This document shows, in pieces, positions 46,366 through 64,000 of a DNA stretch of 64,000 nt. The stretch's first letter is position 1. Each line of letters opens with the position of its first letter. Origin of the DNA: an uncultured Spirochaetota bacterium (GTDB lineage Bacteria; Spirochaetota; Spirochaetia; SZUA-6; Fen-1364); contig CAWAHW010000004.1 in the NCBI GenBank assembly GCA_963781885.1, positions 744,800 to 808,799 of the forward strand, given 5' to 3'. Both the position numbers and the translations under genes were made by a program. The notes below the pieces were generated by a model that was not told the DNA's origin, made no database searches, and saw only the letters and a list, made by a program, of their open reading frames with translations.

Positions 46366-46447
46366 GATGCTCCTCCTCGTGGTCGATTTGGGAGCATCAT
46401 TTCACGTAGATGATTTTTCCAGAAGTTGCGGTTTATCGGGCGCTTAG

Positions 46448-47573: not shown

Positions 47574-47689
47574 GCATAACAAATCGTTGGAGCACTCCGG
47601 ACTAGAATTTGGTCCACCAGACCCACTTCCGGGGCCGATCTTTGTGGTTTCTGTCTGATGCGGGCCGGGTGCTCAACTCTATGTTATAG
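47574..47689 (+). repeat. attC 1 (type A)
   Basis: R'' GCATAAC; L boxes GTTGGAGCACTCCGG/CCGGGTGCTCAAC with unpaired G and T; R' GTTATAG. Confidence 0.9.
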
Positions 47690-47726
47690 CTCCCAAAGGT
47701 CACTATTCGTCGGAGGAAATACGCTA

Positions 47727-48782
47727 GTGAGAACCGATCCAGTATCGCAGGTGCTGTCTTCCGTCTCCCGCGTCACCGATGTGCTCGTCACGGTACTCAT
47801 CCTTGGTTGCTCGGTCGGTGTGTTCTCGTCTGCCCTGGTATCATTGATAACACCGTCATCCATCGCCCTATTGGCCCTGCTTACAGTTTCGCTCCTGGCA
47901 ACCGCCGCCGCCTTCGTTCGACTCACATTCAGCGAGATCGCGGTTCGATCTGCGAGTATGACGGTTCCGACCGCTTTTGCTGTCAACTTGAAGACCGGCC
48001 GGGCATCCCCGCCTGTTCGCCTGCGAATGGCTGCCTCGGTGACGGCAGAGCCTCGGCCCTTTCCGATTGTTTTCCTCGAAGTTCACAATCGTCTCCAAGA
48101 CGCGGAACTGGATGCTGGAATCGACCGGCAGTTCTTTGAGCCGATGGCATGCCTCCTCTATGCGCTTCGGGACAAGCTGGGTGCCTGCGACGCTTTCGCT
48201 CCTCTACTCGCAAGAATAAGCCGCGGCCCTTTCATCAATAGCGTTGTTCAGCAACCGCTGTCTCATTTGCCGCAGGACATAGAGCAGATTGCACCCTCAA
48301 TTCTTGATACTGCAGTGCTACGTCGCTACTTTCACGGGCTCACATTCAACCTACCGACCGGTGTCACACTTCGTCTGTCCCTAAACCCTTTGGAGCTGTG
48401 GATTGCGGGATATGGTATCAGCCTTCGACTGCATCCGATAACCGCCGTGGCTGCCGGTGGAGCCACCTCCACATGGAAGCGACGTTTCTTCGATCACGAC
48501 AACTGCCGCATCTCGGGCGCTGCTTTCCACCTTACGCTTACCTACGGAGGCCCGGGGTTGCTATTTGTCCGCAAGAAGGTACAACCGCCCAAGTGGTCGA
48601 CGGAGGCCATCCTGAGTTGGTTTCAGGGCCTCGTTGACTGGATCAGCGGCTATCTCGATTGGCTGGATACCGATGACGAAATCAGGACTGCGGAGAGATT
48701 TGACCTAGTCACCGAATCGCCCCTTCACTATCGTTCGGCGTCTGGCTCTCTCCCCCCTGACATTGTGTTTGAGATTGAGTAG
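47727..48782 (+). CDS. cassette gene: hypothetical protein with two N-terminal TM helices
   Basis: RBS GGAGG + GTG; stop just before attC2. Confidence 0.7.
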   Translation: MRTDPVSQVLSSVSRVTDVLVTVLILGCSVGVFSSALVSLITPSSIALLALLTVSLLATAAAFVRLTFSEIAVRSASMTVPTAFAVNLKTGRASPPVRLRMAASVTAEPRPFPIVFLEVHNRLQDAELDAGIDRQFFEPMACLLYALRDKLGACDAFAPLLARISRGPFINSVVQQPLSHLPQDIEQIAPSILDTAVLRRYFHGLTFNLPTGVTLRLSLNPLELWIAGYGISLRLHPITAVAAGGATSTWKRRFFDHDNCRISGAAFHLTLTYGGPGLLFVRKKVQPPKWSTEAILSWFQGLVDWISGYLDWLDTDDEIRTAERFDLVTESPLHYRSASGSLPPDIVFEIE

Positions 48783-48790
48783 TGGATTGT

Positions 48791-48906
48791 GCCTAACAAA
48801 TCGTTGGACCAGTCGCCTTAGAATTTGTCTGGATTGACCCAACTTTGTCCTAATCGTCGGGTGGGGCTGGGGTGATGCGGCGGCGCTGGTCAACTCTATG
48901 TTAGGC
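48791..48906 (+). repeat. attC 2 (type B)
   Basis: GCCTAAC...GTTGGACCAGTCGCC/GGCGCTGGTCAAC...GTTAGGC. Confidence 0.9.
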
Positions 48907-48918
48907 GGATACAAACCT

Positions 48919-49716
48919 ATGTTTGTAGCGAGAAGTGAATCCTCCTCAAGGTGCATTGCTTGGGAAACCGAAAAGGACGAGGCGCCCTTCTTTTGCCCCG
49001 AATGTGACGCTCAAGTCATACTCAAGAAAGGACCCGCACGAATTGAGCATTTTGCGCATAAGCCCCCGGTGAATTGCATCTACGGTAAAGGGGAGACAGC
49101 GGACCACCTGCGCGCAAAGAAGGCGATTTACCTTGCTCTCCAAAAACACACAGACTGCACAAGATGCGAAATGGAGCGCTCCCTCAAGGGGGTACGGCCG
49201 GACATAAGCCTTCGCATTCGTGGAACTCCAGTTGCGATTGAAGTTCAGAATAGCTCAATCGCGATCGAAACGATCTTTCAACGCTCCGTGCGCTACTATG
49301 ACCTCGGTATCAGCGTCATGTGGGTCCTTCCAATGCACTTCCCAACTTCTGCTTACTACGATGAGGAAGAAGCTGAAGTTCACAGAATGAAGCATTGGGA
49401 AAAATATATTCAGGCCCTTCATTTTGGGCGTCTCTATTACTGGCAACTTGGAAGTTTCGTCCATGCTTATCATTTCAAACCATTTCGGAAGTACGTTCCG
49501 GAATCGGAGTGGTACAATCCCGATGGATCCCAAGAAACCCCTGGGGGGTACTATCAGGGGAGGAAGGACTTGCGAGAAGTGTGTAAGTTGGGGCCTCAAC
49601 TCCTAGATATCGCGTTCGACTTTGTTCCAAAAATGCACCGCAAGGTATTTGCCATTTCTCAAGGGAGAATTCCAATTTGTAGCACATGGCAAGACAATGT
49701 GCAGAGATGGTGGTAG
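48919..49716 (+). CDS. cassette gene: CoiA-like PD-(D/E)xK nuclease-family protein
   Basis: FFCPEC..VILKKG..IEHFAH; GETADHLRAK; VRPDI; VAIEVQNS. Confidence 0.8.
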   Translation: MFVARSESSSRCIAWETEKDEAPFFCPECDAQVILKKGPARIEHFAHKPPVNCIYGKGETADHLRAKKAIYLALQKHTDCTRCEMERSLKGVRPDISLRIRGTPVAIEVQNSSIAIETIFQRSVRYYDLGISVMWVLPMHFPTSAYYDEEEAEVHRMKHWEKYIQALHFGRLYYWQLGSFVHAYHFKPFRKYVPESEWYNPDGSQETPGGYYQGRKDLREVCKLGPQLLDIAFDFVPKMHRKVFAISQGRIPICSTWQDNVQRWW

Positions 49717-49721
49717 TATCC

Positions 49722-49836
49722 GCCTAACAAATCGTTGGACCAGTCGCCTAGGATTTCTTGTGGATAGACCCAACTTTTTCCTAATCGTCGGGTGGGGCCG
49801 GTTGATGCGGCGGCGCTGGTCAACTCTATGTTATGT
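49722..49836 (+). repeat. attC 3 (type B)
   Basis: GCCTAAC...GTTATGT. Confidence 0.9.
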
Positions 49837-49935
49837 CCATCCGCAATTTGATCGACTGCGACTGTATTACCCTGCTTGCGGACGCCGCATTGACGGCTCA
49901 CGTAGATCAAGGTAGAATACTATTGGAGGCATTCT

Positions 49936-50130
49936 ATGGCCAAAGAAGATCCAAAAAAAGGAACCGAGTCTAGGGACAAGGTTTTCAGCGAAAGCTTGGA
50001 ATTCGTGCAGGACTCTGCAGATGCCTTGTCTTCGGCCGCGGAGACGGCTGGACCGCCACCAAAGCTCTTTGTGAACAAGAAGCAGGCATCCAAGGCACCG
50101 AACAGCGACAAGAAGAAGGGAAATAGCTAA
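49936..50130 (+). CDS. small charged protein
   Basis: RBS GGAGG; 64 aa. Confidence 0.55.
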   Translation: MAKEDPKKGTESRDKVFSESLEFVQDSADALSSAAETAGPPPKLFVNKKQASKAPNSDKKKGNS

Positions 50131-50147
50131 CCTCGCCTTGAGGCTAT

Positions 50148-51141
50148 ATGGCCCTACCCGCGGATCTTATCGTTTCCCTACTTTTTCTCTTACCCGGCTT
50201 TTTGGTTGTGCAGGCTAGACGCCGTGCCAAGGAGTATGTTCAGCATGAAGCTTTTGAATTCACTATCATTTCCCTGGCATTCAGCTTTTTTCTTCTTTTA
50301 CTGTGGGTAGCTATTTGTCTTTTCCAAAGGGCGCTAATCGATTCGAAATTTTCTGTCTTTCAGTCTCTAGAAGAATATGTCTCGAAGTCCGGGGTTGCCT
50401 CCCTTTTCAATAGCTATGTCTATATTGCACTCATTTGCTATTTGCTAGTTTTCTTGACTTTTACCTTCGTTGCATATGCGTTTGCATATTCGTCTACCCT
50501 TCACTTTGTCGTGCGGATTTTTGGCCTCAGGAGAAGGACAAGGCATCTGACCCCGTGGGAGGACTTCCTTCATCTAAATCGGAGGCGTTGGGTAAGCATT
50601 TCACTCAACGATAATCGAACTTACGTAGGACGAGTTGGAATTTTCAGCCATAAACCATTTGAGGATGAACTTATTCTGATTAAACCCTGCTCTTTCTCTT
50701 TGCCATACTTCCTTGCTGGTCGCAATCAAACGAAGCTCCGCCAGGATGGTTCGAAGGCGATGCTGTAACCGAATCATCTCTCGCTGGGATTTGGTGGATC
50801 GACGTGCCGTTAGTGATCAAAAGCATGGAATCATCACCTACAAAGGCACAAAGCAACAGCGTACGTCCAAACCTTTGGCAAGCGTCTACATACCTTCTCG
50901 CAGCATTGTTTCAATGGAGTCATACGTCTCGGGAGTAGAGAGGAAGGAACTGGTTTGGCACCATTGGGTGCTCCTTGTGGCAGCTTTCGCTCTTTTCGTC
51001 TTCTTGGCAAGAGTTTCCTATACGATTCCGGCGGCAGCATTTCATATCAGACGGATAGAATTGATTGACTGGATTACGCTTGGCGGCATAGCCGCGTGCG
51101 TTGCATCAATGCTGTTCATGCGATCATCTTTTTCACGTTAG
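50148..51141 (+). CDS. membrane protein, DUF6338-like (probable frameshift near 50700)
   Basis: LLFLLPGFL; TPWEDF; WVSISLNDNRTYVG; continues in ORF 50713-51141. Confidence 0.6.
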
Positions 51142-51278
51142 CAATCCTATTATAGTAGGTTAGAAAATCCTTCAGTCCCGACAAGCAATTCTACTGCTAG
51201 ACATTGGGCCGCTCAAGCATATGGACTCGATAGATTTATGAAGAAGGCTTCCTTGGAATCCAATCGATTTTTTGGTGG

Positions 51279-51394
51279 GCATAACATAGAGTTGACCAGC
51301 GCCGCCGCATCAACCAGCCCCACCTCGACGATTAGGAAAACGCTGGGTCTAAACAGAGAAAATCCTAGGCGACTGGTCCAACGATTTGTTATGT
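51279..51394 (-). repeat. attC 4 (type B), inverted
   Basis: Reverse complement reads ACATAACAAATCGTTGGACCAGTCGCC...GGCGCTGGTCAACTCTATGTTATGC. Confidence 0.9.
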
Positions 51395-51517
51395 CCATCC
51401 TGGCGATAATTGAGGTATGAAGTCAACGCATCTTGCCAAGCGTCGTTCAGATGCTGCAAAAATGAAGGCAATTCAACCTTTAGGACTCTACTCAATTTGA
51501 CACAAGAAAGCTGGTGG

Positions 51518-51632
51518 GCATAACAAGTCGTTGGAGCACTCCAGGCTGAATTTGCTCCAATAGACCCGCTTCCGGCCCAAATCTTCGTGGTCTTTGTCTG
51601 ATGCGGGCCGGGTGCTCAACTCTATGTTCTGC
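51518..51632 (+). repeat. attC 5 (type A)
   Basis: GCATAAC...GTTCTGC. Confidence 0.9.
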
Positions 51633-51772
51633 GCATCTTTGATATTGAAGCTATTAGCAGGCGGCCAGGTTTCCGAATGATCCGTCACTTCCGTCCCCAC
51701 TACAACTTCCATTTCTGCGAACCGTGTGATATCATACACATGAAAGGCAAATGGAACGAAATGACAGGACAA

Positions 51773-52090
51773 ATGGAGTCAGTAGAAACCCGGCAGGCAA
51801 TCATAGACTACATCGACTCACAGATGCCGCGGTTTCGTAGCACATATTATGTTCGCAAAATGGCTCTTATTGGATCATTTGCCAGAGATGAACAGACTTC
51901 TGGTAGTGATATTGATCTGCTGATAGACCTTGAACCCGGGGCACCCGACATTCACCAAATCAAGCATATCCTCAAGGCTGAGCTCGAGCAACATTTTGGT
52001 CGAAGGGTGGAGATTGCGTCCGAGCGCTACCTGAAACCATACTATAGAAAGCAGATACTCCAGGAAGCTATTTATGTCCAGCAAGGATGA
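51773..52090 (+). CDS. minimal nucleotidyltransferase (MNT) antitoxin
   Basis: LIGSFARDEQTSGSDIDLLID; start codon uncertain. Confidence 0.88.
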   Translation: MESVETRQAIIDYIDSQMPRFRSTYYVRKMALIGSFARDEQTSGSDIDLLIDLEPGAPDIHQIKHILKAELEQHFGRRVEIASERYLKPYYRKQILQEAIYVQQG

Positions 52091-52418
52091 AGCCAATCTT
52101 TTGGCAATCCTCGACTCAATGCAAAGGATCAAAGAATACATCCAAGGTATCAACTCGCCTGATGACTTCTTGAAATCAAAGGTAGTCTTTGACGCTACCT
52201 TAATGAACTTCATTAATATTGGAGAGATGGCAGACCGATTGTCGATCAACCTCCGCGATCAAAACAGTGACGTCGACTGGCAAAAGATAAAGGACTTCAG
52301 AAATATCGTTGCGCACGATTACCTTGGAATTGATGCTGAAGAAGTATGGCAGATAATTCAAAGTGACATCCCTTCTTTGAAAAAGTCGATTGAAAAAATC
52401 TTAGCCACATTCCAGTAG
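52074..52418 (+). CDS. HEPN (DUF86) RNase toxin
   Basis: INIGEMA; WQKIKDFRNIVAHDY (Rx4H). Confidence 0.9.
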   Translation: MSSKDEANLLAILDSMQRIKEYIQGINSPDDFLKSKVVFDATLMNFINIGEMADRLSINLRDQNSDVDWQKIKDFRNIVAHDYLGIDAEEVWQIIQSDIPSLKKSIEKILATFQ

Positions 52419-52439
52419 TGCCAATGGACTCGAAAGAGC

Positions 52440-52553
52440 GCAGAACAAATCGTTGGAGCACTCCAGGCTGAATTTGCTCGAATAGACCCGCTTCCGGAGC
52501 AAATCGGTGTGGTGCCTTCTGATGCGGGCCGGGTGCTCAACTCTATGTTAGAT
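52440..52553 (+). repeat. attC 6 (type A)
   Basis: GCAGAAC...GTTAGAT. Confidence 0.9.
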
Positions 52554-52633
52554 GCTCCAAGATAAGGAGCATTCTCACTTGCGGGTAAACGGTCTCTCTT
52601 GACGTGGTGCTGAAATATAACTATATTGTAACT

Positions 52634-52921
52634 ATGGCAAGCATTACGGTTCGCAACATACCTGATGACGTGCTTGGGAAGATCAAAGCACTTTCTTCAA
52701 TAGAGAAGCGCAGTGTCAACAACGAGATTCTCGTGATCCTCGAGCGGGGAACATATGATGAGTATGAGGACAAACTGCAAAAGCGCAAGTATCTCTCAAA
52801 GGCTACTCAGGTTGAGATCTGGAAACGTTTGGCGGGTACCTGGGAGGATAGCCGATCCGCAAAGGAGATAATTGAAGACATCTATACCCACAGAACGGGT
52901 GGCCGTGACGTGCAGCCATGA
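52634..52921 (+). CDS. FitA/Arc-like RHH antitoxin
   Basis: MASITVRNIPDDV...RSVNNEILVILE; promoter TTGACG-17-TATATT at 52599-52627. Confidence 0.85.
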   Translation: MASITVRNIPDDVLGKIKALSSIEKRSVNNEILVILERGTYDEYEDKLQKRKYLSKATQVEIWKRLAGTWEDSRSAKEIIEDIYTHRTGGRDVQP

Positions 52922-53307
52922 TCCTGATAGACACTGATGTCTGCATCGACCTATTGAAAGGAAACAAAAAGATCCTCCGCCGACGTGAAGAGTATGATGG
53001 GCCAATAGGCGTTTGTTTCATGACAATAGCCGAGCTCTTTTATGGAGCTCAAAAGTCGAGTGACCCTTCCAGGAATATCGACACAGTAGAAAGGCTTCTT
53101 CTAACGCTTGAAATAGTGCAGTCCGATCTCAGCATCTTAAAACGATTCGGAACCATCAAGGCCCAGCTTCAGAATGCGGGAATGCCGATCGCGGATGCTG
53201 ATATCCTTATAGCTTCAGCTACGCTTGAAAAGGCAGAAAAGCTTATTACCGGGAACACCAAGCACTTTGAACGCATTCCCGGGCTGAGTTTGGAGGACTG
53301 GCGTTAA
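52918..53307 (+). CDS. vapC: PIN-domain toxin VapC
   Basis: LIDTDVCI; TIAELFYGA; ADILIASAT; LITGNTKHFERIPGL. Confidence 0.92.
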   Translation: MILIDTDVCIDLLKGNKKILRRREEYDGPIGVCFMTIAELFYGAQKSSDPSRNIDTVERLLLTLEIVQSDLSILKRFGTIKAQLQNAGMPIADADILIASATLEKAEKLITGNTKHFERIPGLSLEDWR

Positions 53308-53373
53308 GGCGCTTTCCTTTCTACTAGGCAGGAATTGACACGAATAGACAAACATCGATTGAAATCGCGGAGC

Positions 53374-53489
53374 ATCTAACAAATCGTTGGAGCACTCCGG
53401 ACTAGAATTTGGTCCAGCAGACCCGCTTTCGGTGCAAATCTTTGTGGTCTTTGTCTGATGCGGGCCGGGTGCTCAACTCTATGTTAGGC
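53374..53489 (+). repeat. attC 7 (type A)
   Basis: ATCTAAC...GTTAGGC. Confidence 0.9.
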
Positions 53490-53497
53490 GCATCGTG

Positions 53498-54816
53498 GGT
53501 CCTGTCTAAGCACATCGTTGACAGAATTCTAAGCACATCGTTGACACTTTTTTGGGCGACGTTTTCTCCGAGAGGAGAGCGGGATGCCCTGGAGGGAACG
53601 GTCAGCGATGGACGAAAAGGCTAGTTTCGTTCTTGAGTGGGAGTCAGGCCAGCACACGTTCACTGCTCTGTGCAAATCTTATGGTATCTCCCGTACTTTA
53701 GGTTACCGCTACATACTGCGCTATCTGTTGCGGGGTGTAGCGGGACTCAAGGAGCAATCGCGGGCTCCGCGGCGGGTGTGGAACCGCACTGCACCGAGCA
53801 TCGAGCGGGCAATCGTACGAATACGAGGCAGGTGGCCTCGCATGGGTCCGCTGAAGATCTTTCAGCTGCTCACGGAGAGGTATGGTGGTCGGCGGAAGGT
53901 GCCTTCGGTGGCGACGATCGCCTTGGTGCTCAAACGCTATGGCCTAGTCAAGAAGCGGCGCCGCGTTCGTCGCATTCGAGAGATGCACCCGATCTTTGAG
54001 GCGAAGGCCCCCAACGAGATCTGGAGCGTGGACTTCAAAGGGAAGTTCCGCATGGGCGACGGGCGCTACTGCTACCCGCTGACCGTCATGGACGCCTACA
54101 GCCGCTTTGTGCTGGCGGTGGTGGGAATGCATAATCCCACATATGAGGGCACAAAGGCCGTATTTGAGGCCCTTTTCAAGAAGTACGGTTTGCCCAAACA
54201 GATCCACAGTGACAACGGAGAGCCCTTCGCCAGTGGGGTGAGCCTCTCGCGGCTTACGCGGCTTGCCGTCTGGCTCATGGATCTGGGGATCCAGCCGGTC
54301 TATTCTGACCCGGCTCACCCCGAGCAGAACGGTAGTCACGAGCGGATGCACGAAGAGCTAAAGGCTGAGGCCACAAAGCCGGCCGCCTACAGCCTGGTCC
54401 AGCAGCAACACAAGTTCGACGCCTTTCGTCATTTCTACAACGTGCAGCGTCCTCATCAGACGCTGGGACAGAGGAGGCCCAAGGAGTTCTACCGCCACTC
54501 CCCTCGCCGCCTTCCACGCATAACTAGGACCTGGAAGTATCCAGAAGGCATGTGCACGAAATACGTTTGCCGCAACGGGGCAATCCGCTGGGGCTCCAGC
54601 AAGTGGGTCGTCGTCAGCACAACGCTGATCGAGAAGTACGTCGGACTGGAGCAGATCGTGAAGGGCAAGTGGCGCGTGTATTACCGCGACACCCTGTTAG
54701 GCTATCTTGACGAGCGGCAGCTGCGCATCCAGGATGAGCTCGGCCGCTTGGTTAGGGCAGCGAGATAACTGTTAGGATGTGCTGCGAAAAGTGTCAACGA
54801 TGTGTTAGTTAGGACA
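53498..54816 (+). mobile_element. IS481-family element B, copy 1
   Basis: IRs GGTCCTGTCTAAGCACATCGTTGACA / (rc) TGTCCTAACTAACACATCGTTGACA; boundaries from identity with copy 2. Confidence 0.92.
53584..54768 (+). CDS. IS481-family transposase
   Basis: MPWRE; WSVDFKG; HSDNGEPF; QNGSHERMH. Confidence 0.95.
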   Translation: MPWRERSAMDEKASFVLEWESGQHTFTALCKSYGISRTLGYRYILRYLLRGVAGLKEQSRAPRRVWNRTAPSIERAIVRIRGRWPRMGPLKIFQLLTERYGGRRKVPSVATIALVLKRYGLVKKRRRVRRIREMHPIFEAKAPNEIWSVDFKGKFRMGDGRYCYPLTVMDAYSRFVLAVVGMHNPTYEGTKAVFEALFKKYGLPKQIHSDNGEPFASGVSLSRLTRLAVWLMDLGIQPVYSDPAHPEQNGSHERMHEELKAEATKPAAYSLVQQQHKFDAFRHFYNVQRPHQTLGQRRPKEFYRHSPRRLPRITRTWKYPEGMCTKYVCRNGAIRWGSSKWVVVSTTLIEKYVGLEQIVKGKWRVYYRDTLLGYLDERQLRIQDELGRLVRAAR

Positions 54817-54908
54817 TAGTAACTTTGGAGGTTCGTCATTCATGAGCAAGGACCGGTTGGCGGTAGTTCTTGGTGCTGGATCCACGCTGGAATTGGGATT
54901 CCCAACAA

Positions 54909-55468
54909 ATAAAGCATCCACCTCCAGAGGAGGTGGTTTTGAACCCCGGCCTCTAAAAGAGGCCTGCTTCTTCGTGCTCTTTCTCTTCGAGCCGCTCGTT
55001 TTCTTCCTGGTATCGTACGTAGCGACGTATCTTCTCTTCATCCAGCCCTATCGTCGTTACGCAATAGCCGCGGCTCCAGAAATGATTTCCCCAGTATGGT
55101 TTCCGCTTCAAGCTCTTGTAGTTTTGAAATATTCCTATTGCTGTCTTGCCCTTCAAAATCCCCATCAGTTCTGATATCGATACCCTTGGAGGAACGTTTA
55201 CCACCAGATGCACATGATCTTTCATCACATTCAGTTCCTCTATTCCACTATCCTTCCATTCGCAGATCGCCCTGATACGTCCTTCGACGTACTTCGCTAC
55301 AGCACCTTCAAGTATTCGAAATCTATACTTGGGGCACCATACTATGTGATAGCTGCACTGGTAGACCACGTGCGATTGTTTTTTCCATTTCGTCATGTTT
55401 CGATTTTATTCGCATTCCGTCTTACGGCATAGCCATCAGGACATCACCACCGCCATAGGCGGTGGGTT
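54909..55468 (-). mobile_element. IS200-type element (ends approximate)
   Basis: Subterminal hairpins CCACCTCC-aga-GGAGGTGG and CCACCGCC-ata-GGCGGTGG. Confidence 0.85.
54953..55396 (-). CDS. tnpA: IS200 Y1 HUH transposase
   Basis: YHIVWCPKYR; DHVHL; HFWSRGY; IRRYVRYQ. Confidence 0.95.
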   Translation of the reverse strand: MTKWKKQSHVVYQCSYHIVWCPKYRFRILEGAVAKYVEGRIRAICEWKDSGIEELNVMKDHVHLVVNVPPRVSISELMGILKGKTAIGIFQNYKSLKRKPYWGNHFWSRGYCVTTIGLDEEKIRRYVRYQEENERLEEKEHEEAGLF

Positions 55469-56423
55469 ATCAAGTCTCACTCAAGACCTAACCAAGCGCC
55501 TCATGAAAGACTGTGCAGCAGCTCGCGCTGCGGCCGTTGAATTGGCCTGCCACACCAACTTTAACTTCGAGGACCTATTTCAGCACCTTGTAGACAATTA
55601 CCGTGCCGCGCATTCCGTACAGAACAGCGTCGACCTCGATCCGAAGCAAACTCTCCAAGACCTTCAGTGTTGCATTCGCTCCGTCAAGGAAGCTATCATA
55701 GGCGCCGCAGTCAGACGCTGCTTCTTGGCACAATTCAGTGATTTCTACCACGAACTTGCAAAAAGCTTTGACCTTGATATCGTCAGCCTCAACTATGATA
55801 GTCTTTTCGAGACGGACATATTCGGAGAAACAATCCAAAACGGGTTCACAGTTAGGACTGGCAACTTCTGGCAGTTTGATAGCGCGTTTGCCACTCGCGT
55901 TCCGGATCGACATAGAATCCTGCGACTCCATGGCTGTGTCAACTTCGTTCCGGCGTACGATCTAAACGTAGTCACTTCGGACAACGAGTCTAGCGCTGAC
56001 TACTTTCAGCGTCATTCCATGTACTGGTCGAACCATGCAAGGCAGACGCTTTTCACGACCGTCAGCAGTTTTGGCGGTCAACAGATTCCAGCTGGAGGAA
56101 TCGAATTCTCAAAAGGTGAACCAATATCCCCAATCATAACCGGACTCCAGAAGGACCACTTCTTTAGCGTCGAACCCTACCACAGCTATTACGAAATGCT
56201 CCAGGGCCTGTTTCAGAATCCACGATTGCTGGTCGTGGGCTACAACTACAACGCCAACGACCAGCACCTGAATCAGCATCTCCAACATCAGCGCAATAGA
56301 GTCCTCATAAACATGAACCCGGCGCTCTCGTCTGAACTGGATAATGGTAAGTGTCTTCAGCTAAGTACTGGCTTCATGGATTCCGTACGCAAGATCGGTA
56401 TGATAGTTGATCACCTACGGGCA

Positions 56424-56539
56424 GTCTAACAAATCGTTGGAGCACTCCGGGCTAAAATTCGCTGCATCAGACCCACTTCCGGTGCAAATCTTTGTGATCT
56501 TTGTCTGATGCGGGCCGGGTGCTCAACTCTATGTTATAT
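56424..56539 (+). repeat. attC 8 (type A)
   Basis: GTCTAAC...GTTATAT. Confidence 0.9.
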
Positions 56540-56715
56540 GGCATAAAATATTCTCTAAGCTTCCCAGATTGGTTCGCCTTCTCATAACGCCGAGCCATCT
56601 ATACCGAAGTCATCGGACGTCGAACAGCGTCCACAATCGATTTAAGGTTATTGATTTCTCGCCACTTGTCAAATTGACTAGTCTGCGTCTCAAATCTTTC
56701 ATGTGGGAGGCAAAA

Positions 56716-57228
56716 ATGGAACAACTGATTTATCAAACGTCGCCGGTGGTGACTCTCGCGACAAATAGGTTTATCAATGTACCAATTATCTTTCAGTACG
56801 AGGACACTCCCTTAATTGTAATAGTTAAGGAACAATCCCTCGGCTATACATCGAGTATCCCTATTTACGATTCAGCTGGGACTTGTTTGGCCAAGATAAA
56901 TGGCACCAGGATATTTCCAACCGCAGAGGGCAAGACGGTTGATATACAAATTGAAAAACGTAGTCTACTTACTATCTGTAAGATCGGCAGCCGCACGGCA
57001 TTCGAGATTCATCATCAACCGGGAGATGCTTTTCGAATAGTAGCAGAGCTTTATGCTCCCGATGGCTACTTCGTCAAATTTGAAGAGCAACCGCAGCCGA
57101 AACTCCTTGACGCCAGCGGAAACGCTATCAAAGTGGGCGGAGTTACCATGATCGGCAACACTATAGAGAATTTACGCATCGGCGTTTGGCTTAAAAAGGA
57201 TGGATCTTGCTTAATCGGCGTGAGCTAA
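56716..57228 (+). CDS. cassette gene: beta-rich hypothetical protein
   Basis: RBS GGAGG + ATG 56716; sole long ORF of the cassette. Confidence 0.7.
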   Translation: MEQLIYQTSPVVTLATNRFINVPIIFQYEDTPLIVIVKEQSLGYTSSIPIYDSAGTCLAKINGTRIFPTAEGKTVDIQIEKRSLLTICKIGSRTAFEIHHQPGDAFRIVAELYAPDGYFVKFEEQPQPKLLDASGNAIKVGGVTMIGNTIENLRIGVWLKKDGSCLIGVS

Positions 57229-57393
57229 CTTTTCTGATCTGAGAATTACTCTTTATCCAGAGAATGCCCCGTGCTTCCTGCTCGCTCGCAGCATGACACG
57301 TTCTGCTAGATTTCGAGAAGCGCCCAGATATTTGACATCGCTTGGATCTGAGTCCTTGTAGAATTCAGCGGCGTATCGTTTGGAACCAATGCC

Positions 57394-57509
57394 ATATAAC
57401 AAATCGTTGGAGCACTCCGGGCTAGAATTTGCTCCATCAGACCCGCTGCCGGTGCCAATCGTTGTGGTTTTTGTCTGATGCGGGCCGGGTGCTCAACTCT
57501 ATGTTAGCC
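57394..57509 (+). repeat. attC 9 (type A)
   Basis: ATATAAC...GTTAGCC. Confidence 0.9.
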
Positions 57510-57518
57510 TCATTCATT

Positions 57519-58837
57519 GGTCCTGTCTAAGCACATCGTTGACAGAATTCTAAGCACATCGTTGACACTTTTTTGGGCGACGTTTTCTCCGAGAGGAGAG
57601 CGGGATGCCCTGGAGGGAACGGTCAGCGATGGACGAAAAGGCTAGTTTCGTTCTTGAGTGGGAGTCAGGCCAGCACACGTTCACTGCTCTGTGCAAATCT
57701 TATGGTATCTCCCGTACTTTAGGTTACCGCTACATACTGCGCTATCTGTTGCGGGGTGTAGCGGGACTCAAGGAGCAATCGCGGGCTCCGCGGCGGGTGT
57801 GGAACCGCACTGCACCGAGCATCGAGCGGGCAATCGTACGAATACGAGGCAGGTGGCCTCGCATGGGTCCGCTGAAGATCTTTCAGCTGCTCACGGAGAG
57901 GTATGGTGGTCGGCGGAAGGTGCCTTCGGTGGCGACGATCGCCTTGGTGCTCAAACGCTATGGCCTAGTCAAGAAGCGGCGCCGCGTTCGTCGCATTCGA
58001 GAGATGCACCCGATCTTTGAGGCGAAGGCCCCCAACGAGATCTGGAGCGTGGACTTCAAAGGGAAGTTCCGCATGGGCGACGGGCGCTACTGCTACCCGC
58101 TGACCGTCATGGACGCCTACAGCCGCTTTGTGCTGGCGGTGGTGGGAATGCATAATCCCACATATGAGGGCACAAAGGCCGTATTTGAGGCCCTTTTCAA
58201 GAAGTACGGTTTGCCCAAACAGATCCACAGTGACAACGGAGAGCCCTTCGCCAGTGGGGTGAGCCTCTCGCGGCTTACGCGGCTTGCCGTCTGGCTCATG
58301 GATCTGGGGATCCAGCCGGTCTATTCTGACCCGGCTCACCCCGAGCAGAACGGTAGTCACGAGCGGATGCACGAAGAGCTAAAGGCTGAGGCCACAAAGC
58401 CGGCCGCCTACAGCCTGGTCCAGCAGCAACACAAGTTCGACGCCTTTCGTCATTTCTACAACGTGCAGCGTCCTCATCAGACGCTGGGACAGAGGAGGCC
58501 CAAGGAGTTCTACCGCCACTCCCCTCGCCGCCTTCCACGCATAACTAGGACCTGGAAGTATCCAGAAGGCATGTGCACGAAATACGTTTGCCGCAACGGG
58601 GCAATCCGCTGGGGCTCCAGCAAGTGGGTCGTCGTCAGCACAACGCTGATCGAGAAGTACGTCGGACTGGAGCAGATCGTGAAGGGCAAGTGGCGCGTGT
58701 ATTACCGCGACACCCTGTTAGGCTATCTTGACGAGCGGCAGCTGCGCATCCAGGATGAGCTCGGCCGCTTGGTTAGGGCAGCGAGATAACTGTTAGGATG
58801 TGCTGCGAAAAGTGTCAACGATGTGTTAGTTAGGACA
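57519..58837 (+). mobile_element. IS481-family element B, copy 2
   Basis: Matches 53498-54816 at offset 4021. Confidence 0.92.
57605..58789 (+). CDS. IS481-family transposase
   Basis: Protein identical to 53584-54768. Confidence 0.95.
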   Translation: MPWRERSAMDEKASFVLEWESGQHTFTALCKSYGISRTLGYRYILRYLLRGVAGLKEQSRAPRRVWNRTAPSIERAIVRIRGRWPRMGPLKIFQLLTERYGGRRKVPSVATIALVLKRYGLVKKRRRVRRIREMHPIFEAKAPNEIWSVDFKGKFRMGDGRYCYPLTVMDAYSRFVLAVVGMHNPTYEGTKAVFEALFKKYGLPKQIHSDNGEPFASGVSLSRLTRLAVWLMDLGIQPVYSDPAHPEQNGSHERMHEELKAEATKPAAYSLVQQQHKFDAFRHFYNVQRPHQTLGQRRPKEFYRHSPRRLPRITRTWKYPEGMCTKYVCRNGAIRWGSSKWVVVSTTLIEKYVGLEQIVKGKWRVYYRDTLLGYLDERQLRIQDELGRLVRAAR

Positions 58838-58955
58838 CCGTGCTTGAAAACATCCCTAGAAAACCTGAATATGAGCACTGGCAAGTTGCGAGTGCCCGGA
58901 CGCCAGTCAACTCGAGATGCTCGCATAGCGGCCGGACAGCTGGACGGGAGGACAT

Positions 58956-59492
58956 ATGAAACCGCGCGGTCAACTAATGATCGAACACCGACTTATCGAA
59001 AAGTTCCTTGCTTTTGCCGCGGAAGCTACAAATGGTATGAAGGACAGCTCCTACAACCCCGTGCTAATAGACACAATCGTCGACTTCATAAAGACATATG
59101 CTGATAGAACCCATCATGGAAAGGAAGAAGATATTCTCTTTCATGAGCTAGTGGAAAGGGCAATCAGCGGCAATGATCTTGTTGTAATGAATGAACTAAT
59201 CCAGGAGCACAAACTGGCAAGGGAAAAAGTCGCTGAAATAGTGAAATTGAATGATCAATACCGCTCAGGCAGCAAGAAGGTCGTTTCCCAGATCAAAGAA
59301 ATCGTACTCTGGCTCGCTGACTTCTATCCAGTCCATATCTTGAAAGAGGACAAGGATTTCTTTCCAAAGAGTGAGGCTTATTTCAACCAAGTGGAATTGG
59401 AAGCAATGTTAGAAGCTTTCTGGACTTTTGACCGAAACATGATCCACGAGAAGTACCAAAGGCTATATGAAAGCCTCAGGCTTAAGTCATAA
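58956..59492 (+). CDS. cassette gene: hemerythrin (HHE) domain protein
   Basis: LMIEHRLI; YADRTHHGKEEDILF; LIQEH; HILKED. Confidence 0.88.
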   Translation: MKPRGQLMIEHRLIEKFLAFAAEATNGMKDSSYNPVLIDTIVDFIKTYADRTHHGKEEDILFHELVERAISGNDLVVMNELIQEHKLAREKVAEIVKLNDQYRSGSKKVVSQIKEIVLWLADFYPVHILKEDKDFFPKSEAYFNQVELEAMLEAFWTFDRNMIHEKYQRLYESLRLKS

Positions 59493-59536
59493 AAACGCTT
59501 CATTTGATCAAGTGAGCGGCTTTTTGAAATGGAGCC

Positions 59537-59651
59537 GCGTAACAAATCGTTGCAGTACTCCAGGCAGAATTCGCTCGAATAGACCCGCTTCCGTAGCAAA
59601 TCGGGGTGGTGCCGTTCTGATGCGGGCCGGGTACTGAACTCTATGTTATGT
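59537..59651 (+). repeat. attC 10 (type A')
   Basis: GCGTAAC...GTTGCAGTACTCC/GGGTACTGAAC...GTTATGT. Confidence 0.9.
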
Positions 59652-59807
59652 CCAATCAGAGTCTGTTTTCGTACAAATTTGATTGAGAAAACCACCTTTC
59701 TGATACATTTCGGGCAGATTGATATCTTTACCTCGATAGGCGGGAAGCAAGCTGGAATACTTGACAAATGTATGACAACGTAGTACGTTACGGGTACGAG
59801 GTGACCC

Positions 59808-60026
59808 ATGAAACAAGCGGTTACAGTACGGCTGCCCGATGAATTGCGGAAAGAACTGCAGCAAATAAGCGACAACGAAGCTAAACCCATAAGCGACCTT
59901 GTTCGGGAGTCAATTCAGAAATTTGTCTCAGTCTATAACTTTCGGCGGCTCCGCAACACTGTTCTACCTTTTGCTGAAGCACAAGGAATCCTTACGGACG
60001 AGGATGTCTTTCGCACCATATCATGA
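59808..60026 (+). CDS. CopG/RHH antitoxin
   Basis: VTVRLPDELRKEL...SDLVRESI...GILTDEDVF; promoter TTGACA-17-TACGTT at 59761-59789. Confidence 0.85.
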   Translation: MKQAVTVRLPDELRKELQQISDNEAKPISDLVRESIQKFVSVYNFRRLRNTVLPFAEAQGILTDEDVFRTIS

Positions 60027-60439
60027 AAGTTGTGCTAGACACAAACGTGATAGTTGCAGCATTCGCCACGCAGGGACTATGTCATGCTGTATTTGAGATG
60101 TGCCTGGACCAGCAAGATCTATACCTGAGTTCGGAAATACTTAACGAGATAGCTGACGCGTTGAAACGGAAGCTAAAAGTTCCACCTCAAACTATCCAAG
60201 ACACCCTTGAATACCTAAAAGAGCATTCAACTGTTTTTCATGTCAAACCGCTAGGCAAACGCATTTCAAGGGATCAAAATGATGACCATATCATTGCCCT
60301 TGCTGAACAAGCGTTGGCAGATTACATCATTACTGGGGATGAGGACTTGCTAGTACTCAAGAAGCACAAAGGCATTCCGATCATACAGCCAAGACAGTTT
60401 TGGGAAATAATGAAGAACACAGAACGAACTAACGGATGA
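60023..60439 (+). CDS. PIN-family toxin
   Basis: VVLDTNVIVAA; RDQNDDHII; ADYIITGDEDLL. Confidence 0.9.
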   Translation: MKVVLDTNVIVAAFATQGLCHAVFEMCLDQQDLYLSSEILNEIADALKRKLKVPPQTIQDTLEYLKEHSTVFHVKPLGKRISRDQNDDHIIALAEQALADYIITGDEDLLVLKKHKGIPIIQPRQFWEIMKNTERTNG

Positions 60440-60465
60440 CCTAACGCCATTTGAAAATAGATTGG

Positions 60466-60582
60466 ACATAACAAATCGTTGGAGCACTCCGGGCTAAGAA
60501 TCTGCTCCAATAGACCCGCTTCCGGTGCCAGTCTTTGTGGTTTTTGTCTGATGCGGGCCGGGTGCTCAACTCTATGTTATGA
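60466..60582 (+). repeat. attC 11 (type A)
   Basis: ACATAAC...GTTATGA. Confidence 0.9.
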
Positions 60583-60708
60583 CGCCTCAGAATTTGGCAT
60601 CACGGGTCATTTGAGGTCGGTTTCGGGAGAGGAGGTCAGGCGTCCATGCCTGACCTCCTCTCCCTCAAGCAATCAACTGCAGGAGCATGCTTCTTTCGCG
60701 CCTAATGA

Positions 60709-60737
60709 TTGACAACGCATACCAATTATGGTATGTT
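60709..60737 (+). promoter_or_regulatory. TA promoter with overlapping operator
   Basis: TTGACA-17-TATGTT with IR CATACCA-atta-TGGTATG (60718-60735). Confidence 0.7.
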
Positions 60738-60742
60738 TCGAT

Positions 60743-61075
60743 ATGCTATATGAAGTCATCCTTCTGGATCCGGCGAAGGACTTTCTCGTTGGTCTTGGAG
60801 AAAAGCTTCAAGCCAAGGCCTATCGCGCAATCGACCTCTTGGCCTACTTTGGCCCGTTGTTGCGGATGCCACATTCCAGAAAACTTGGTGACAAGGACCT
60901 GTGGGAGTTACGGGTCCAGCAGGCGGGCATGATCTCCCGGCTGTTCTATTTCCATGATCGAGAAAGGATTTACGTCGTGACGTCCGGCTACGTGAAGAAG
61001 ACCGAGAAAACCAGCCCGGACAAGATGCAGAAGGCACTCCGGCTTAAGGCGGAATACCTTGGAGGAATTAGGTGA
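60743..61075 (+). CDS. RelE/Gp49-like toxin
   Basis: LRMPHSRKL..LWELRV...RLFYF...GYVKKTEKT. Confidence 0.88.
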   Translation: MLYEVILLDPAKDFLVGLGEKLQAKAYRAIDLLAYFGPLLRMPHSRKLGDKDLWELRVQQAGMISRLFYFHDRERIYVVTSGYVKKTEKTSPDKMQKALRLKAEYLGGIR

Positions 61076-61368
61076 TCAAAACCACCCGATATGAGGACTT
61101 TCTTAAGCAGCAACTTAAGAATCCAAAGCTTCGTAAGGAATACGATGCCCTTGGAGGCGAATTTGCCCTTGCAAAGGAAATCATCGAACTGCGCATCAAG
61201 AAGAAGCTGACTCAGAAGCAATTGGCACAGCAGATTGGAACTTCACAGCCGGCGATCGCCAGAATTGAGTCTGGTAGCTACCGGAATGTTTCCTTGTCTT
61301 TCCTCAGGCGCGTTGCTGATGCATTGGGCGCAGTACCGGAGATCCACTTGAAGCGCAAAGGTGCCTGA
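61072..61368 (+). CDS. XRE-HTH antitoxin
   Basis: LTQKQLAQQIGTSQPAIARIESG. Confidence 0.9.
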   Translation: MIKTTRYEDFLKQQLKNPKLRKEYDALGGEFALAKEIIELRIKKKLTQKQLAQQIGTSQPAIARIESGSYRNVSLSFLRRVADALGAVPEIHLKRKGA

Positions 61369-61507
61369 AGAATAGGGGAATGCATTTGTTGTGGGGCGGG
61401 GACATGGTAGGCCGCAACCCGGTCCACGCCCTCGCCGTCCTTGGCTCGGGCGCCCTTCGCCCCGAGAGATTTCCTTCCACCGAAGGCAAACAGTGCGCCG
61501 AGAGGCG

Positions 61508-61623
61508 TCATAACAAATCGTTGGAGCACTCCGGACTAGAATTTGGCCCATCAGACCCGCTCACGGTGCAAATCCATGTGGTTTTGGTTTGATGCGGGCC
61601 GGGTGCTCAACTCTATGTTAGCC
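61508..61623 (+). repeat. attC 12 (type A)
   Basis: TCATAAC...GTTAGCC. Confidence 0.9.
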
Positions 61624-61653
61624 TCATTCAAAGGATTAACAGTAGGTAACCGT

Positions 61654-62154
61654 ATGGATGGAATTCTGATTCGGCCAATACTCGAAAAGGATCTTCTCGC
61701 AATAGCGGACCTACTTCGCCAACTGGCGGACCATGCGCATTCGACCTTTGAAATGGATGTCGACCACGTGCGCTCAGTCTACTCAAAAATGATCAGCAGT
61801 CCGCAAAGCTACAAGAACCTTGTGGCTTGCAAGAATGAAGTTGCTGTCGGCTTCATATCCGTTGTCTACTACCTCAGCTTCTTTCACGAAGGCGGAACCG
61901 CACTGATAAACGAACTGATTGTCGCAGCGGACCATCGAAACCAAGGCATTGGAAGAGCACTGGTTCAGCACGCAGTATCCACAGCAAGGCAAGACGGAAT
62001 GGATGAAATAGAAGTCGGAACAGAAAGAGGCAACAGGCCGGCAGCCGCCTTCTATAGAAACTCAGGATTTGATGAAGAGTACGTACTTTTGGGCATGGAA
62101 TTCGGTCTGGATACTGATTGCCATCGAATGGCCGATTCAACGTCGGGAAAATGA
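61654..62154 (+). CDS. cassette gene: GNAT acetyltransferase
   Basis: LIVAADHRNQGIGRALV; NRPAAAFYRNSGF. Confidence 0.9.
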   Translation: MDGILIRPILEKDLLAIADLLRQLADHAHSTFEMDVDHVRSVYSKMISSPQSYKNLVACKNEVAVGFISVVYYLSFFHEGGTALINELIVAADHRNQGIGRALVQHAVSTARQDGMDEIEVGTERGNRPAAAFYRNSGFDEEYVLLGMEFGLDTDCHRMADSTSGK

Positions 62155-62267
62155 ATGTGCTTTGACTTTGTGAATACATCCGTAAAGACCCAACTCCAAA
62201 TGATCAGAGCAAATTGACCATAAGAGGGTTCCAGACCTTGCCCATAGTTCAGACAAAAGCGGAATGA

Positions 62268-62383
62268 GGCTAACAAGTCGTTGCAGTACTCCGGGCTAGA
62301 ATCTTTCTGCTGAGACCCAATTCCGGGTCAAATCTTTGTGGTTTTGGTCTGATGCGGGCCGGGTACTGAACTCTATGTTATAA
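62268..62383 (+). repeat. attC 13 (type A')
   Basis: GGCTAAC...GTTATAA. Confidence 0.9.
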
Positions 62384-62441
62384 CGTGCTTGAGCTTTGTC
62401 ATTTGACGCCCTTTTTCAAAGCTTAGGTATAGTAGGCATCA

Positions 62442-63215
62442 GTGAAACTTGAAACCTGGATAGCAGAGAATGAATCGCTGATAGATTGGAGTCTCTTTTC
62501 TTCGCCATGGGATGCCATGCAGGTCAAACACAACCCATTCAGGCAAGAGCAGATTGAAGCTATTTTACAGTCATCAGGATTTCTTGCGAAAGAATCTCCT
62601 GTCGTCCTTGATCTCGGATGCGGCCCAGGAATCCTTGGGAAGCTATTAGCCAATGAAAAGCCTTTGGCACAGTACTTTGGCATCGACGGTGATCCTTTGA
62701 TGCTCGCTGCAATGAACCACCTCTTGAACAACAGGAACGTCAATGCGCTTCAATACGATTTACGCAAAGTAGAATGGAGCGAACCTTTCAAAGGTCATTT
62801 TGATTCAGTTGTAAGCCTTACGGCCCTACACTGGCTATCCCAGGAACACCTAAATAAGACATATAAAGCAGCCTTTGAGGTTCTTAAGCCCGGAGGCACC
62901 CTCATTATTGGTGACCCCTACCAACCAGAAGATCCTGAAGAACGTAAAAAGCTCGAGGAGCTTCATTGTAGCCGTGCTTCAACACTAGAGGGCCAGACTT
63001 GGGAAGAATACTGGCAACAATTCTTTGACAAATACTCTATTAAAGAAGCATACACCGAATATCACACACAAAAGGGCTACCAGATACCCTTTGAAGGCTC
63101 TGATGACGGATATCCCCTCTCATGGCACCTGGCGTCACTCAAAAACGCCGGATTCAGCGGCGCTTCAGTCTTTTGGAAGGCTGATCTACGCGCTGTTTAC
63201 GGAGGAACTAAATAA
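62442..63215 (+). CDS. cassette gene: class I SAM methyltransferase
   Basis: VLDLGCGPG; FDSVVSLTALHWL; LKPGG. Confidence 0.9.
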   Translation: MKLETWIAENESLIDWSLFSSPWDAMQVKHNPFRQEQIEAILQSSGFLAKESPVVLDLGCGPGILGKLLANEKPLAQYFGIDGDPLMLAAMNHLLNNRNVNALQYDLRKVEWSEPFKGHFDSVVSLTALHWLSQEHLNKTYKAAFEVLKPGGTLIIGDPYQPEDPEERKKLEELHCSRASTLEGQTWEEYWQQFFDKYSIKEAYTEYHTQKGYQIPFEGSDDGYPLSWHLASLKNAGFSGASVFWKADLRAVYGGTK

Positions 63216-63249
63216 CAAAGGATAAGGGCCTACACAATTCAGGCGCACG

Positions 63250-63365
63250 TTATAACAAATCGTTGGACCAGTCGCCTTAGAATTGGCCTGGATAGACCCT
63301 GCTTTGTCCTAATCGTCGGGGTGGTGCCGGTTGATGCGGCGGCGCTGGTCAACTCTATGTTAGCC
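63250..63365 (+). repeat. attC 14 (type B)
   Basis: TTATAAC...GTTAGCC. Confidence 0.9.
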
Positions 63366-63431
63366 ACAACCAAGAAAGATTTGGCTATAGACAGCACTTG
63401 ACAACTATCCGCCATTGGCGTACTTTTAGAT

Positions 63432-63749
63432 ATGAAGTTCATGGAGACGCCGACATTTACAAAGATCGTCAACCAAAAACTGATTGATGATGAGTATCGG
63501 CTGCTCCAAACAGCACTGGTGCTACGTCCCGAACAAGGGGCACTTATTCCTGGAACGGGTGGTCTCCGCAAACTGAGATGGGCCGGCAAGGGACACGGCA
63601 AATGTGGTGGGTACCGACTTATCTACTATTGGGACAGACCGTCAGACGCTATTTACATGCTATATCTGTATCCGAAAAATGAACAAGAAGACCTCACTGC
63701 CCAGCAGACCAAGATCCTGAGGCAGTTGGTAGAAAGGGAGTTCAAATGA
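63432..63749 (+). CDS. RelE/HigB-type toxin
   Basis: FMETPTF; IPGTGGLRKLRW; GGYRLIYY; YPKNEQEDL; promoter TTGACA-17-TACTTT at 63398-63426. Confidence 0.9.
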   Translation: MKFMETPTFTKIVNQKLIDDEYRLLQTALVLRPEQGALIPGTGGLRKLRWAGKGHGKCGGYRLIYYWDRPSDAIYMLYLYPKNEQEDLTAQQTKILRQLVEREFK

Positions 63750-64000
63750 ACACCATGGATTTCAAGGAGCTTGCACAGAGCATCAAGCAGGCTGGGAAAA
63801 TCAAGCGCGGCAAAGTTAAGCCTTCAAGGGTAACGGTATTCAACTCCGCAGACGTACGGGCAATCCGTGAGAAACTACATAAGTCTCAAAGTGAGTTCGC
63901 CTTAATGATTGGGGTAAGCATTGCCACACTTCAGAACTGGGAACAGGGACGACGCAAACCGGAAGGCCCAGCACAAGCCCTATTGAGGGTGGCTTCTATT
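63746..64000 (+). CDS. HigA-type HTH antitoxin, runs off window end
   Basis: DVRAIREKLHKSQSEFALMIGVSIATLQNWEQGRRKPEGPA. Confidence 0.9.
   Translation, partial: MNTMDFKELAQSIKQAGKIKRGKVKPSRVTVFNSADVRAIREKLHKSQSEFALMIGVSIATLQNWEQGRRKPEGPAQALLRVASI

Follow-up and report, generated by a model that had tools for sequence, protein, structure and literature searches.

Extended matching ends of integron cassettes in a Spirochaetota array, with a length typical of their attC family

The cassette recombination site of integrons, attC, recombines solely as a folded bottom strand, and excision of a cassette yields a circle, as described in passages of Bouvier et al. 2009 (PMC2727003) and of PMC5027507. 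Passages of the former also report that, in most cassettes, self-pairing extends past the 7-nt boxes to 9–11 consecutive nt, credit this extended pairing to Rowe-Magnus 2003 and Sundstrom 1991, and give a range of 57–142 nt for the length of attC. Here, we report the analysis of a cassette array in a stretch of 64,000 nucleotides (hereafter, the window) from an uncultured Spirochaetota bacterium (GenBank assembly GCA_963781885.1, contig CAWAHW010000004.1, forward-strand positions 744,800 to 808,799). We find that most cassettes of this array have ends that are exact reverse complements of each other over 12–13 bp. The original prediction for this DNA, made from the sequence alone, had taken complementarity to be expected over only about 7 bp, a wrong premise given the 9–11 nt in passages of PMC2727003, and had treated the extension as unexpected, although it is the norm in print and can also be measured in Vibrio, Gemmatirosa and some class 1 cassettes. 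Extended matching ends are thus a known, already published property of integron cassettes; the increment here is small, namely that the length typical of this family is 12, which exceeds the published 9–11 by one to two bases.

Matching ends of the cassettes

In its right quarter, the window contains one family of attC sites, 13 of them co-oriented and one an inverted copy, arranged as follows.

47574-63365, plus strand: cassette array with 13 attC sites of 114–117 bp and 7-bp R boxes
47574, 48791, 49722, 51518, 52440, 53374 and 56424, plus strand: starts of the attC sites
57394, 59537, 60466, 61508, 62268 and 63250, plus strand: starts of the attC sites, continued

The AAC and GTT boundary triplets lie inside the 7-bp R''/R' boxes at 14 of 14 sites (the 13 and the inverted one), positions 4–7 of the boxes fit the RRRY consensus only loosely, and the site length falls inside the published attC range. 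All five of the sites that were folded as bottom strands form an R stem, a spacer, an L stem and two bulged bases, with energy z-scores in array context of −2.8 to +0.7 (n = 5). The layout is that of a cassette array, in which co-oriented attC sites enclose one or two short genes, 13 sites lying on the plus strand and one having been inverted by a later rearrangement.

With exact runs measured from the G of each GTT and the C of the AAC that follows it, the ends are perfectly reverse-complementary over 12–13 bp in seven of 12 adjacent start/end pairs, over 9 bp in one and over 4–6 bp in four (47683/48797, 4 bp; 49830/51524, 6 bp; 53483/56430, 5 bp; 57503/59543, 4 bp). Recognition of an inversion, described below, adds two more 13-bp pairs, bringing the matching pairs to 10, nine of them at 12–13 bp. 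Eight start/end pairs had been listed in the original prediction, and their coordinates and sequences are right, the second number of each pair being the first base of the end repeat. Only 2 of 132 non-adjacent pairs reach at least 9 bp, one of which owes its length to start 57503 being a duplicate of start 61617, and none of 200,000 permutations of the ends gave seven pairs of at least 12 bp. Within the array, each attC matches its own R'' to its own R' over only 3–7 bp; the long match therefore belongs to the cassette and not to the site as it lies. The cassettes concerned, together with the last one of the window, are the following.

48900-49728, plus strand: cassette with 13-bp ends (48900-48912 / 49716-49728); CoiA-like nuclease gene
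51626-52446, plus strand: cassette with 9-bp exact ends, longer with one gap; nucleotidyltransferase (MNT) and HepT-like toxin–antitoxin pair
52547-53380, plus strand: cassette with 12-bp ends; FitA-like antitoxin and PIN toxin
56533-57400, plus strand: cassette with 12-bp ends; gene outside every Pfam/NCBIfam family
59645-60472, plus strand: cassette with 13-bp ends; PIN toxin with a short gene upstream
60576-61514, plus strand: cassette with 13-bp ends; Gp49/DUF891 and HTH toxin–antitoxin-like pair
61617-62274, plus strand: cassette with 13-bp ends; GNAT acetyltransferase, below every curated resistance-family cut-off
62377-63256, plus strand: cassette with 12-bp ends; SAM-dependent methyltransferase
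63359-64000, plus strand: last cassette, open at the window edge; RelE-like toxin and HTH antitoxin

Toxin–antitoxin-like genes are found in five cassettes (within 51626-53380 and 59645-64000: MNT-HepT, FitA-PIN, PIN, Gp49-HTH and RelE-HTH); large sedentary arrays likewise contain toxin–antitoxin cassettes.

The attC family across genomes

A single scan for the attC end motifs in GTDB genomes yielded 85 stretches, corresponding to 83 loci (L001–L083), none of which overlaps the window array and 64 of which carry a Spirochaetota label. The 233 distinct attC sites of these loci and the window allowed 170 intervals to be delimited; 146 of these span at most 1,300 bp (the other 24 were left out of the run counts), and 125 remained once identical ends were removed. 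Matches from nhmmer without exact ends were dropped (58 of 400 and 30 of 187). The two ends match over at least 9 bp in 97 of the 125 cassettes and over at least 12 bp in 71, with a median of 12, a mode of 12 and many runs of 13. Position by position, the match is 0.81 at 12 and 0.42 at 13 (nulls 0.36 and 0.30), which places a sharp edge at 12. With homologues clustered, 57 of 95 clusters reach at least 12 bp, and the arms comprise 57 distinct 12-mers. Shuffled pairing produces runs of at least 12 in 0.85% of pairs, against the 71 of 125 observed. The 12-nt start of the open cassette at 63359 is present in none of the collected loci.

Runs of the same length occur at loci labelled with other phyla (12, 12, 10, 12 and 13 at L060; 12 at L012), on small contigs that may be misbinned. 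The attC motif is also seen on short contigs binned as archaea (L036 and L078; Methanosarcina, Bathyarchaeia), where misbinning may again be involved. Of 174 in-register family sites, 170 have a G as first extrahelical base on the top strand and hence a C on the bottom strand; 59 of the 233 sites are in another register. Passages of PMC5027507 describe this base as usually G on the attC bottom strand; as G is merely usual, a bottom-strand C does not disqualify the family.

Integrases adjoin arrays of the same attC family in related loci, and eight of eight candidates tested from such loci pass the TIGR02249 cut-off. Several integrases beside the family are long, at 389–499 amino acids (aa) if counted from the first Met (L004, L020, L021, L024, L026, L028 and L041), with 110–225 open-frame residues ahead of the TIGR02249 match. 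In one array (L003, L066 and L071), two short cassette families of about 291 bp and 320 bp (25 and 12 distinct copies) alternate with longer cassettes. Searches of plasmids gave no match to the attC family or to the DNA of the MNT-HepT cassette, a plasmid search with the cassette toxins for further arrays returned ordinary toxin–antitoxin matches only, and a spirochaete integrase query returned class 1 records only.

Comparison with other integrons

The extended R'/R'' pairing in passages of Bouvier et al. 2009 is the same cassette-specific pairing beyond 7 nt, starting at the AAC/GTT triplets, but its range of 9–11 nt is not matched by the present family, whose mode lies at 12. The Vibrio superintegron, with attC of the VCR type, similarly combines long attC sites with many toxin–antitoxin cassettes. 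Across five Vibrio arrays, 98 of 125 cassettes match over at least 9 bp, 80 of them at 9–11 and 18 at 12 or more (median 10), and the per-position match at positions 9–12 runs 0.86, 0.66, 0.62 and 0.31; this broad spread over 9–12 contrasts with the sharp 12 of the window family. An equally sharp edge, together with similar attC ends, is found in the array of the Gemmatirosa kalamazoonensis megaplasmid (L089, L093), where 55 of 65 cassettes reach at least 9 bp, 33 match over exactly 11 and one over 12, the per-position match being 0.66 at 11 and 0.05 at 12. Here, however, the edge lies at 11, attC is shorter (about 86 nt between triplets) and the integrase has 319 aa. That array (NZ_CP007129.1, about 810000-857000) is an unannotated integron with at least 67 delimited cassettes. 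Run lengths of the window family differ from those of both large comparison sets (Mann–Whitney p = 2e-6 and 4e-5), with the reservation that cassettes of the same genome are not independent.

The class 1 comparison comprises six distinct, correctly delimited cassettes (L085, L086, L094 and the first rows of L096 and L097 were left out). Like the window family, aacA4 and blaVIM-2 have exact matches of 12 and 11 bp, whereas the others are shorter or interrupted (blaOXA-2, 7; arr-3, 8; aadA1, 4; orfD, 5). L088, L092 and L094 held no usable array, and Thiodictyon gave four intervals with runs of 4–9. One comparison record deposited as a Vibrio phage (L087; MK672802.1, 23843-41427) contains thrS-rplT and intIA together with the beginning of the host superintegron.

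According to passages of PMC4909258, 51 of 58 oral cassettes are fully complementary over the 7-bp boxes. In the literature searched, the words 'consecutive complementary' occur together with attC only in PMC2727003, and the extension goes unmentioned in passages of PMC12614218, PMC8876359, 10.1101/2023.11.21.568050 and PMC3053210, as it does in passages of PMC7439510, PMC4792948 and PMC8946536. That literature, which excludes most subscription papers and all supplements, contained no published 12–13-nt or lineage-specific length. By the original prediction's own reckoning, extensions that are already the norm in described arrays would tell against it, and this is what passages of PMC2727003 and our Vibrio and Gemmatirosa counts indicate. 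Its claim of a uniform length holds within one attC family and fails across integrons. That each attC family has its typical length may be new, as a small addition.

Inversion and interruption by insertion sequences

The use of matching ends as a barcode of cassette integrity, also put forward in the original prediction, was borne out, in that mismatches exposed an inversion and two fusions linked to insertion sequences (IS). The intervals and elements concerned are listed here.

49830-51524, plus strand: two scrambled cassettes, internal inversion; DUF6338 gene in the first
51279-51394, minus strand: inverted attC inside the inverted segment, overlooked in the original prediction
50739-51405, no strand: inverted segment with an 11-bp perfect inverted repeat at its limits (50739-50749 / 51395-51405)
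53483-56430, plus strand: fused interval with non-matching ends (5 bp); 15-nt cassette start, IS481-like element, SIR2-like gene region interrupted by IS200
57503-59543, plus strand: fused interval with non-matching ends (4 bp); cassette start, IS481-like element, hemerythrin gene
47683-48797, plus strand: first interval, non-matching ends (4 bp); one long open reading frame (ORF) outside Pfam/NCBIfam families
53498-54816, plus strand: IS481-like type B, copy 1; left end 15 nt past the G of the R' triplet
57519-58837, plus strand: second IS481-like type B copy, with the sequence of copy 1; left end 16 nt past the G of the R' triplet
46410-47565, plus strand: IS481-like type A, truncating the array at its left; right end 15 nt ahead of the C of the R'' triplet

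A 13-bp pairing links start 49830 to the R'' of the inverted attC (51388, minus strand), and another of 13 bp links the R' of that site (51285, minus strand) to end 51524. We infer that the interval consists of two intact 13-bp cassettes scrambled by an inversion, with its breakpoints at the limits of the 11-bp inverted repeat. Integration of the attC in reverse orientation was rejected, as it would leave both end pairs mismatched; an internal inversion is preferred because both end pairs become 13/13 and the repeat marks its limits. The repeat covers positions 8–18 of one cassette end.

In the two fused intervals, IS-linked deletions appear to have left one cassette's start joined to another's body; start 57503 is identical over 14 nt to the start of cassette 61617. 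Interval 47683/48797 contains neither an IS gene nor a remnant partner. The type B copies of the window are 1319 bp each, and none of the three full type B copies has a target duplication. For the three array elements the best family is IS481, at 177 and 210 bits against a curated cut-off of 224; we call them IS481-like because they score below it. IS of the window share 83–91% identity with Spirochaetota-labelled loci; together with the labels of the loci that carry the attC family, this makes a spirochaete the probable host.

Across the loci, the ends of these elements fall at recurrent distances from the crossover triplets. The right end of type A is placed 15–16 nt ahead of the R'' triplet in the window as well as in L029 (twice), L037, L056 and L063, the exceptions being one more copy with an IS30 interposed and one divergent copy that is not beside an attC. 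The left end of type B follows R' by 15–16 nt in the window (two copies), L014/L015, L067 and L027. IS30 ends precede the R'' triplet by 12–13 nt, which puts them at the border of the matching arm, in L037 and four times in L056 (11004-12047, 18150-19112, 20148-21191 and 23574-24617). Runs below 9 are found in seven of nine IS-containing intervals and in 48 of 161 without an IS. The inner repeat of IS481-like type B resembles the R''-L'' arm of attC. IS30 and IS3-type elements insert beside end-like sequences. A preference of these elements for the arm edge is possible, the count covering loci picked by their attC and not IS copies elsewhere in these genomes. Ends of IS481-like elements and IS30 at 12–16 nt from the crossover triplets explain most of the broken pairs, which might be new; among the papers found, none reports by its title or the start of its abstract an insertion of IS481-like elements or IS30 at the attC arm edge.

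Predicted folding and conservation of the arm

Bottom-strand folds were predicted for 78 cassettes of the family and the window with runs of at least 12. The mean predicted energy is −21.1 kcal/mol in the array and −30.6 kcal/mol in the circle, compared with −22.8 kcal/mol in a circle that retains only a 7-bp match; the crossover triplet is paired (P > 0.5) in 60, 78 and 76 of the 78, respectively. These predictions support the proposal in the original prediction of a longer stem that forms only in the excised circle, and the circle is predicted to be a better substrate than the array. As the 7-bp control already pairs the triplet almost as often, the extension is not needed for equilibrium folding, and the extra bases more likely serve protein binding or the kinetics of extrusion.

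In 10 homologous pairs of the family (mean body identity 80%), positions 8–12 are identical at 91 of 100 positions and the next 12 nt at 163 of 240. The stem is thus kept between diverged homologous cassettes, as selection for it, also suggested in the original prediction, would lead one to expect. Both ends change jointly in some homologues, at position 5 or 6 in two short-cassette families, at positions 8–9 in a Vibrio family, and through an indel in L042/L060. Among inner transition mismatches, 15 form G.T pairs on the recombining bottom strand and 3 on the top strand (p = 0.008 against 1:1). Of 71 family cassettes, only 9 have their ORF stop within the arm. Maintenance of the arm by selection is the explanation that we favour, short of proof, and copying of one end from the other at the birth of a cassette is plausible.

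Surroundings of the array

To the left of the array lie IS481-like and IS66 elements and, adjoining them, genes of a conjugative element (window positions 9835-41382), which include a relaxase-like gene, a coupling protein and a VirB-type type IV secretion system (T4SS), as well as ParAB, ArdC, AbiEii and an SNF2 helicase. Rfam gave no matches in the window at gathering thresholds.

Discussion

In the circle produced by excision, the extension probably serves as the outer arm of the folded attC hairpin, giving the integrase a 9–13-bp duplex, and is probably kept by selection. Passages of PMC2727003 put the binding sites of tyrosine recombinases at 9–13 bp, which is the range of the arms measured here, and passages of 10.1101/2022.09.11.507474 state that genomic integrase target sites need about 9 nt per side. 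In the array, the two ends of a cassette are about 0.7–0.9 kb apart and the start of the next cassette flanks each attC, which would leave a short outer stem. Excision of the circle by the integrase would join the cassette's own start to its own attC and thereby complete R', so that the bottom strand of the circle could fold with the full 12–13-bp outer arm, on whose duplex the integrase subunit of the R box would sit. If the circle site is the better of the two, reintegration would be favoured. The match itself would probably arise when the cassette is first made and then be kept by purifying selection.

Several observations weigh against this proposal. In the window, tblastn gave no match to an integron integrase at E up to 1. 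The 7-bp control circle pairs the crossover triplet with a median P of 0.98. The Thiodictyon enzyme is long (457 aa), yet its runs are 4–9, in only four cassettes, and cassettes with exact runs of 4–8 also persist in class 1 integrons. The 10 homologous pairs include pairs from the same genome, with positions that are not independent, and nine Vibrio pairs show no contrast (50 of 54 versus 190 of 216, p = 0.47). Seventeen further inner mismatches pair on neither strand, and the 15:3 wobble bias is also expected from C-to-T change on the bottom strand (p = 0.10 against a 2:1 mutational bias). That integrase length sets arm length is unsupported, with 389–499 aa in the family, 319 aa in Gemmatirosa and 457 aa in Thiodictyon.

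As for the missing integrase, a complete integron would have intI and attI beside the array; intI is absent from the window, and attI was not the object of a separate search. The array resembles a CALIN, an attC cluster without a nearby integrase, in having 13 co-oriented attC sites and no intI in 64 kb. Unlike a CALIN, it continues past the right edge of the window, and its left side is interrupted by IS481-like and IS66 elements; an integrase may therefore sit elsewhere in the genome.

The match could be a scar of birth alone, one end having been copied at formation over a length set by the machinery, with positions 8–12 functionless and slowly decaying. Stepwise mutation would hardly produce a perfect match over 8–9 variable positions, specific to each cassette, in 71 of 125 cassettes. 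The sharp, family-typical edge fits this reading, as does the adequate folding of a 7-bp arm in the model, and passages of PMC5371416 and PMC8618304 describe cassette formation as largely unknown. Yet, in homologues of the family, positions 8–12 show stronger conservation than the 12 nt that follow, and joint changes at both ends exist, so that we regard a scar without function as unlikely. Copying at birth and later selection are compatible, and it is only the absence of function that is disfavoured. Alternatively, the ends might stay matched without any selection if mismatches in the circle hairpin were repaired, or one arm recopied, in each cycle of excision and integration; homologues whose ends differ yet pair perfectly within each cassette exist, for example an A/C transversion at position 6 of both ends in a 291-bp family. 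G.T mismatches should be readily removed by repair. They are nevertheless the commonest class retained, and many copies of one family keep the same mismatch (position 9, six copies), which makes such ongoing homogenisation quite improbable.

Two further explanations fare worse. The cassette ends might be transposon-like terminal inverted repeats, each cassette being moved by a transposase, as the IS481-like and IS30 ends at 12–16 nt from the crossover triplets and the likeness of the type B inner repeat to the attC arm might suggest. This is very improbable, given that the repeat differs from cassette to cassette (57 distinct 12-mers) instead of being one shared IS or miniature-transposon (MITE) repeat, that the repeats start at the integrase crossover triplets with no target duplications beside cassettes, and that IS-containing intervals mostly have broken ends. 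Finally, the base composition of the arms is biased, with a null match of 0.3–0.4 per position, but a chance extension of the 7-bp consensus can be all but dismissed in view of the shuffled pairs and window permutations reported above.

As found, the result is minor: the extension has been described in publications since at least 2009, and the window family exceeds the published range by one or two bases. End matching nevertheless offers a cheap check of cassette integrity that 7-bp definitions of the IntegronFinder style ignore. If the length typical of a family is set by the making of cassettes, it would constrain models of their formation and might help to trace mobile cassettes to their lineage of origin. 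More speculatively, and with considerable doubt on our part, arm length may be a ruler fixed by lineage (12 here, 11 in Gemmatirosa, 9–11 in Vibrio) that stems from cassette-forming copying over a stretch clamped by the integrase, with IS481-like elements and IS30 having evolved insertion just outside the arm, where attC would stand in for their own ends. Were this ruler real, arm length would mark the lineage in which a cassette was made and would give a measurable signature of the cassette-forming step.

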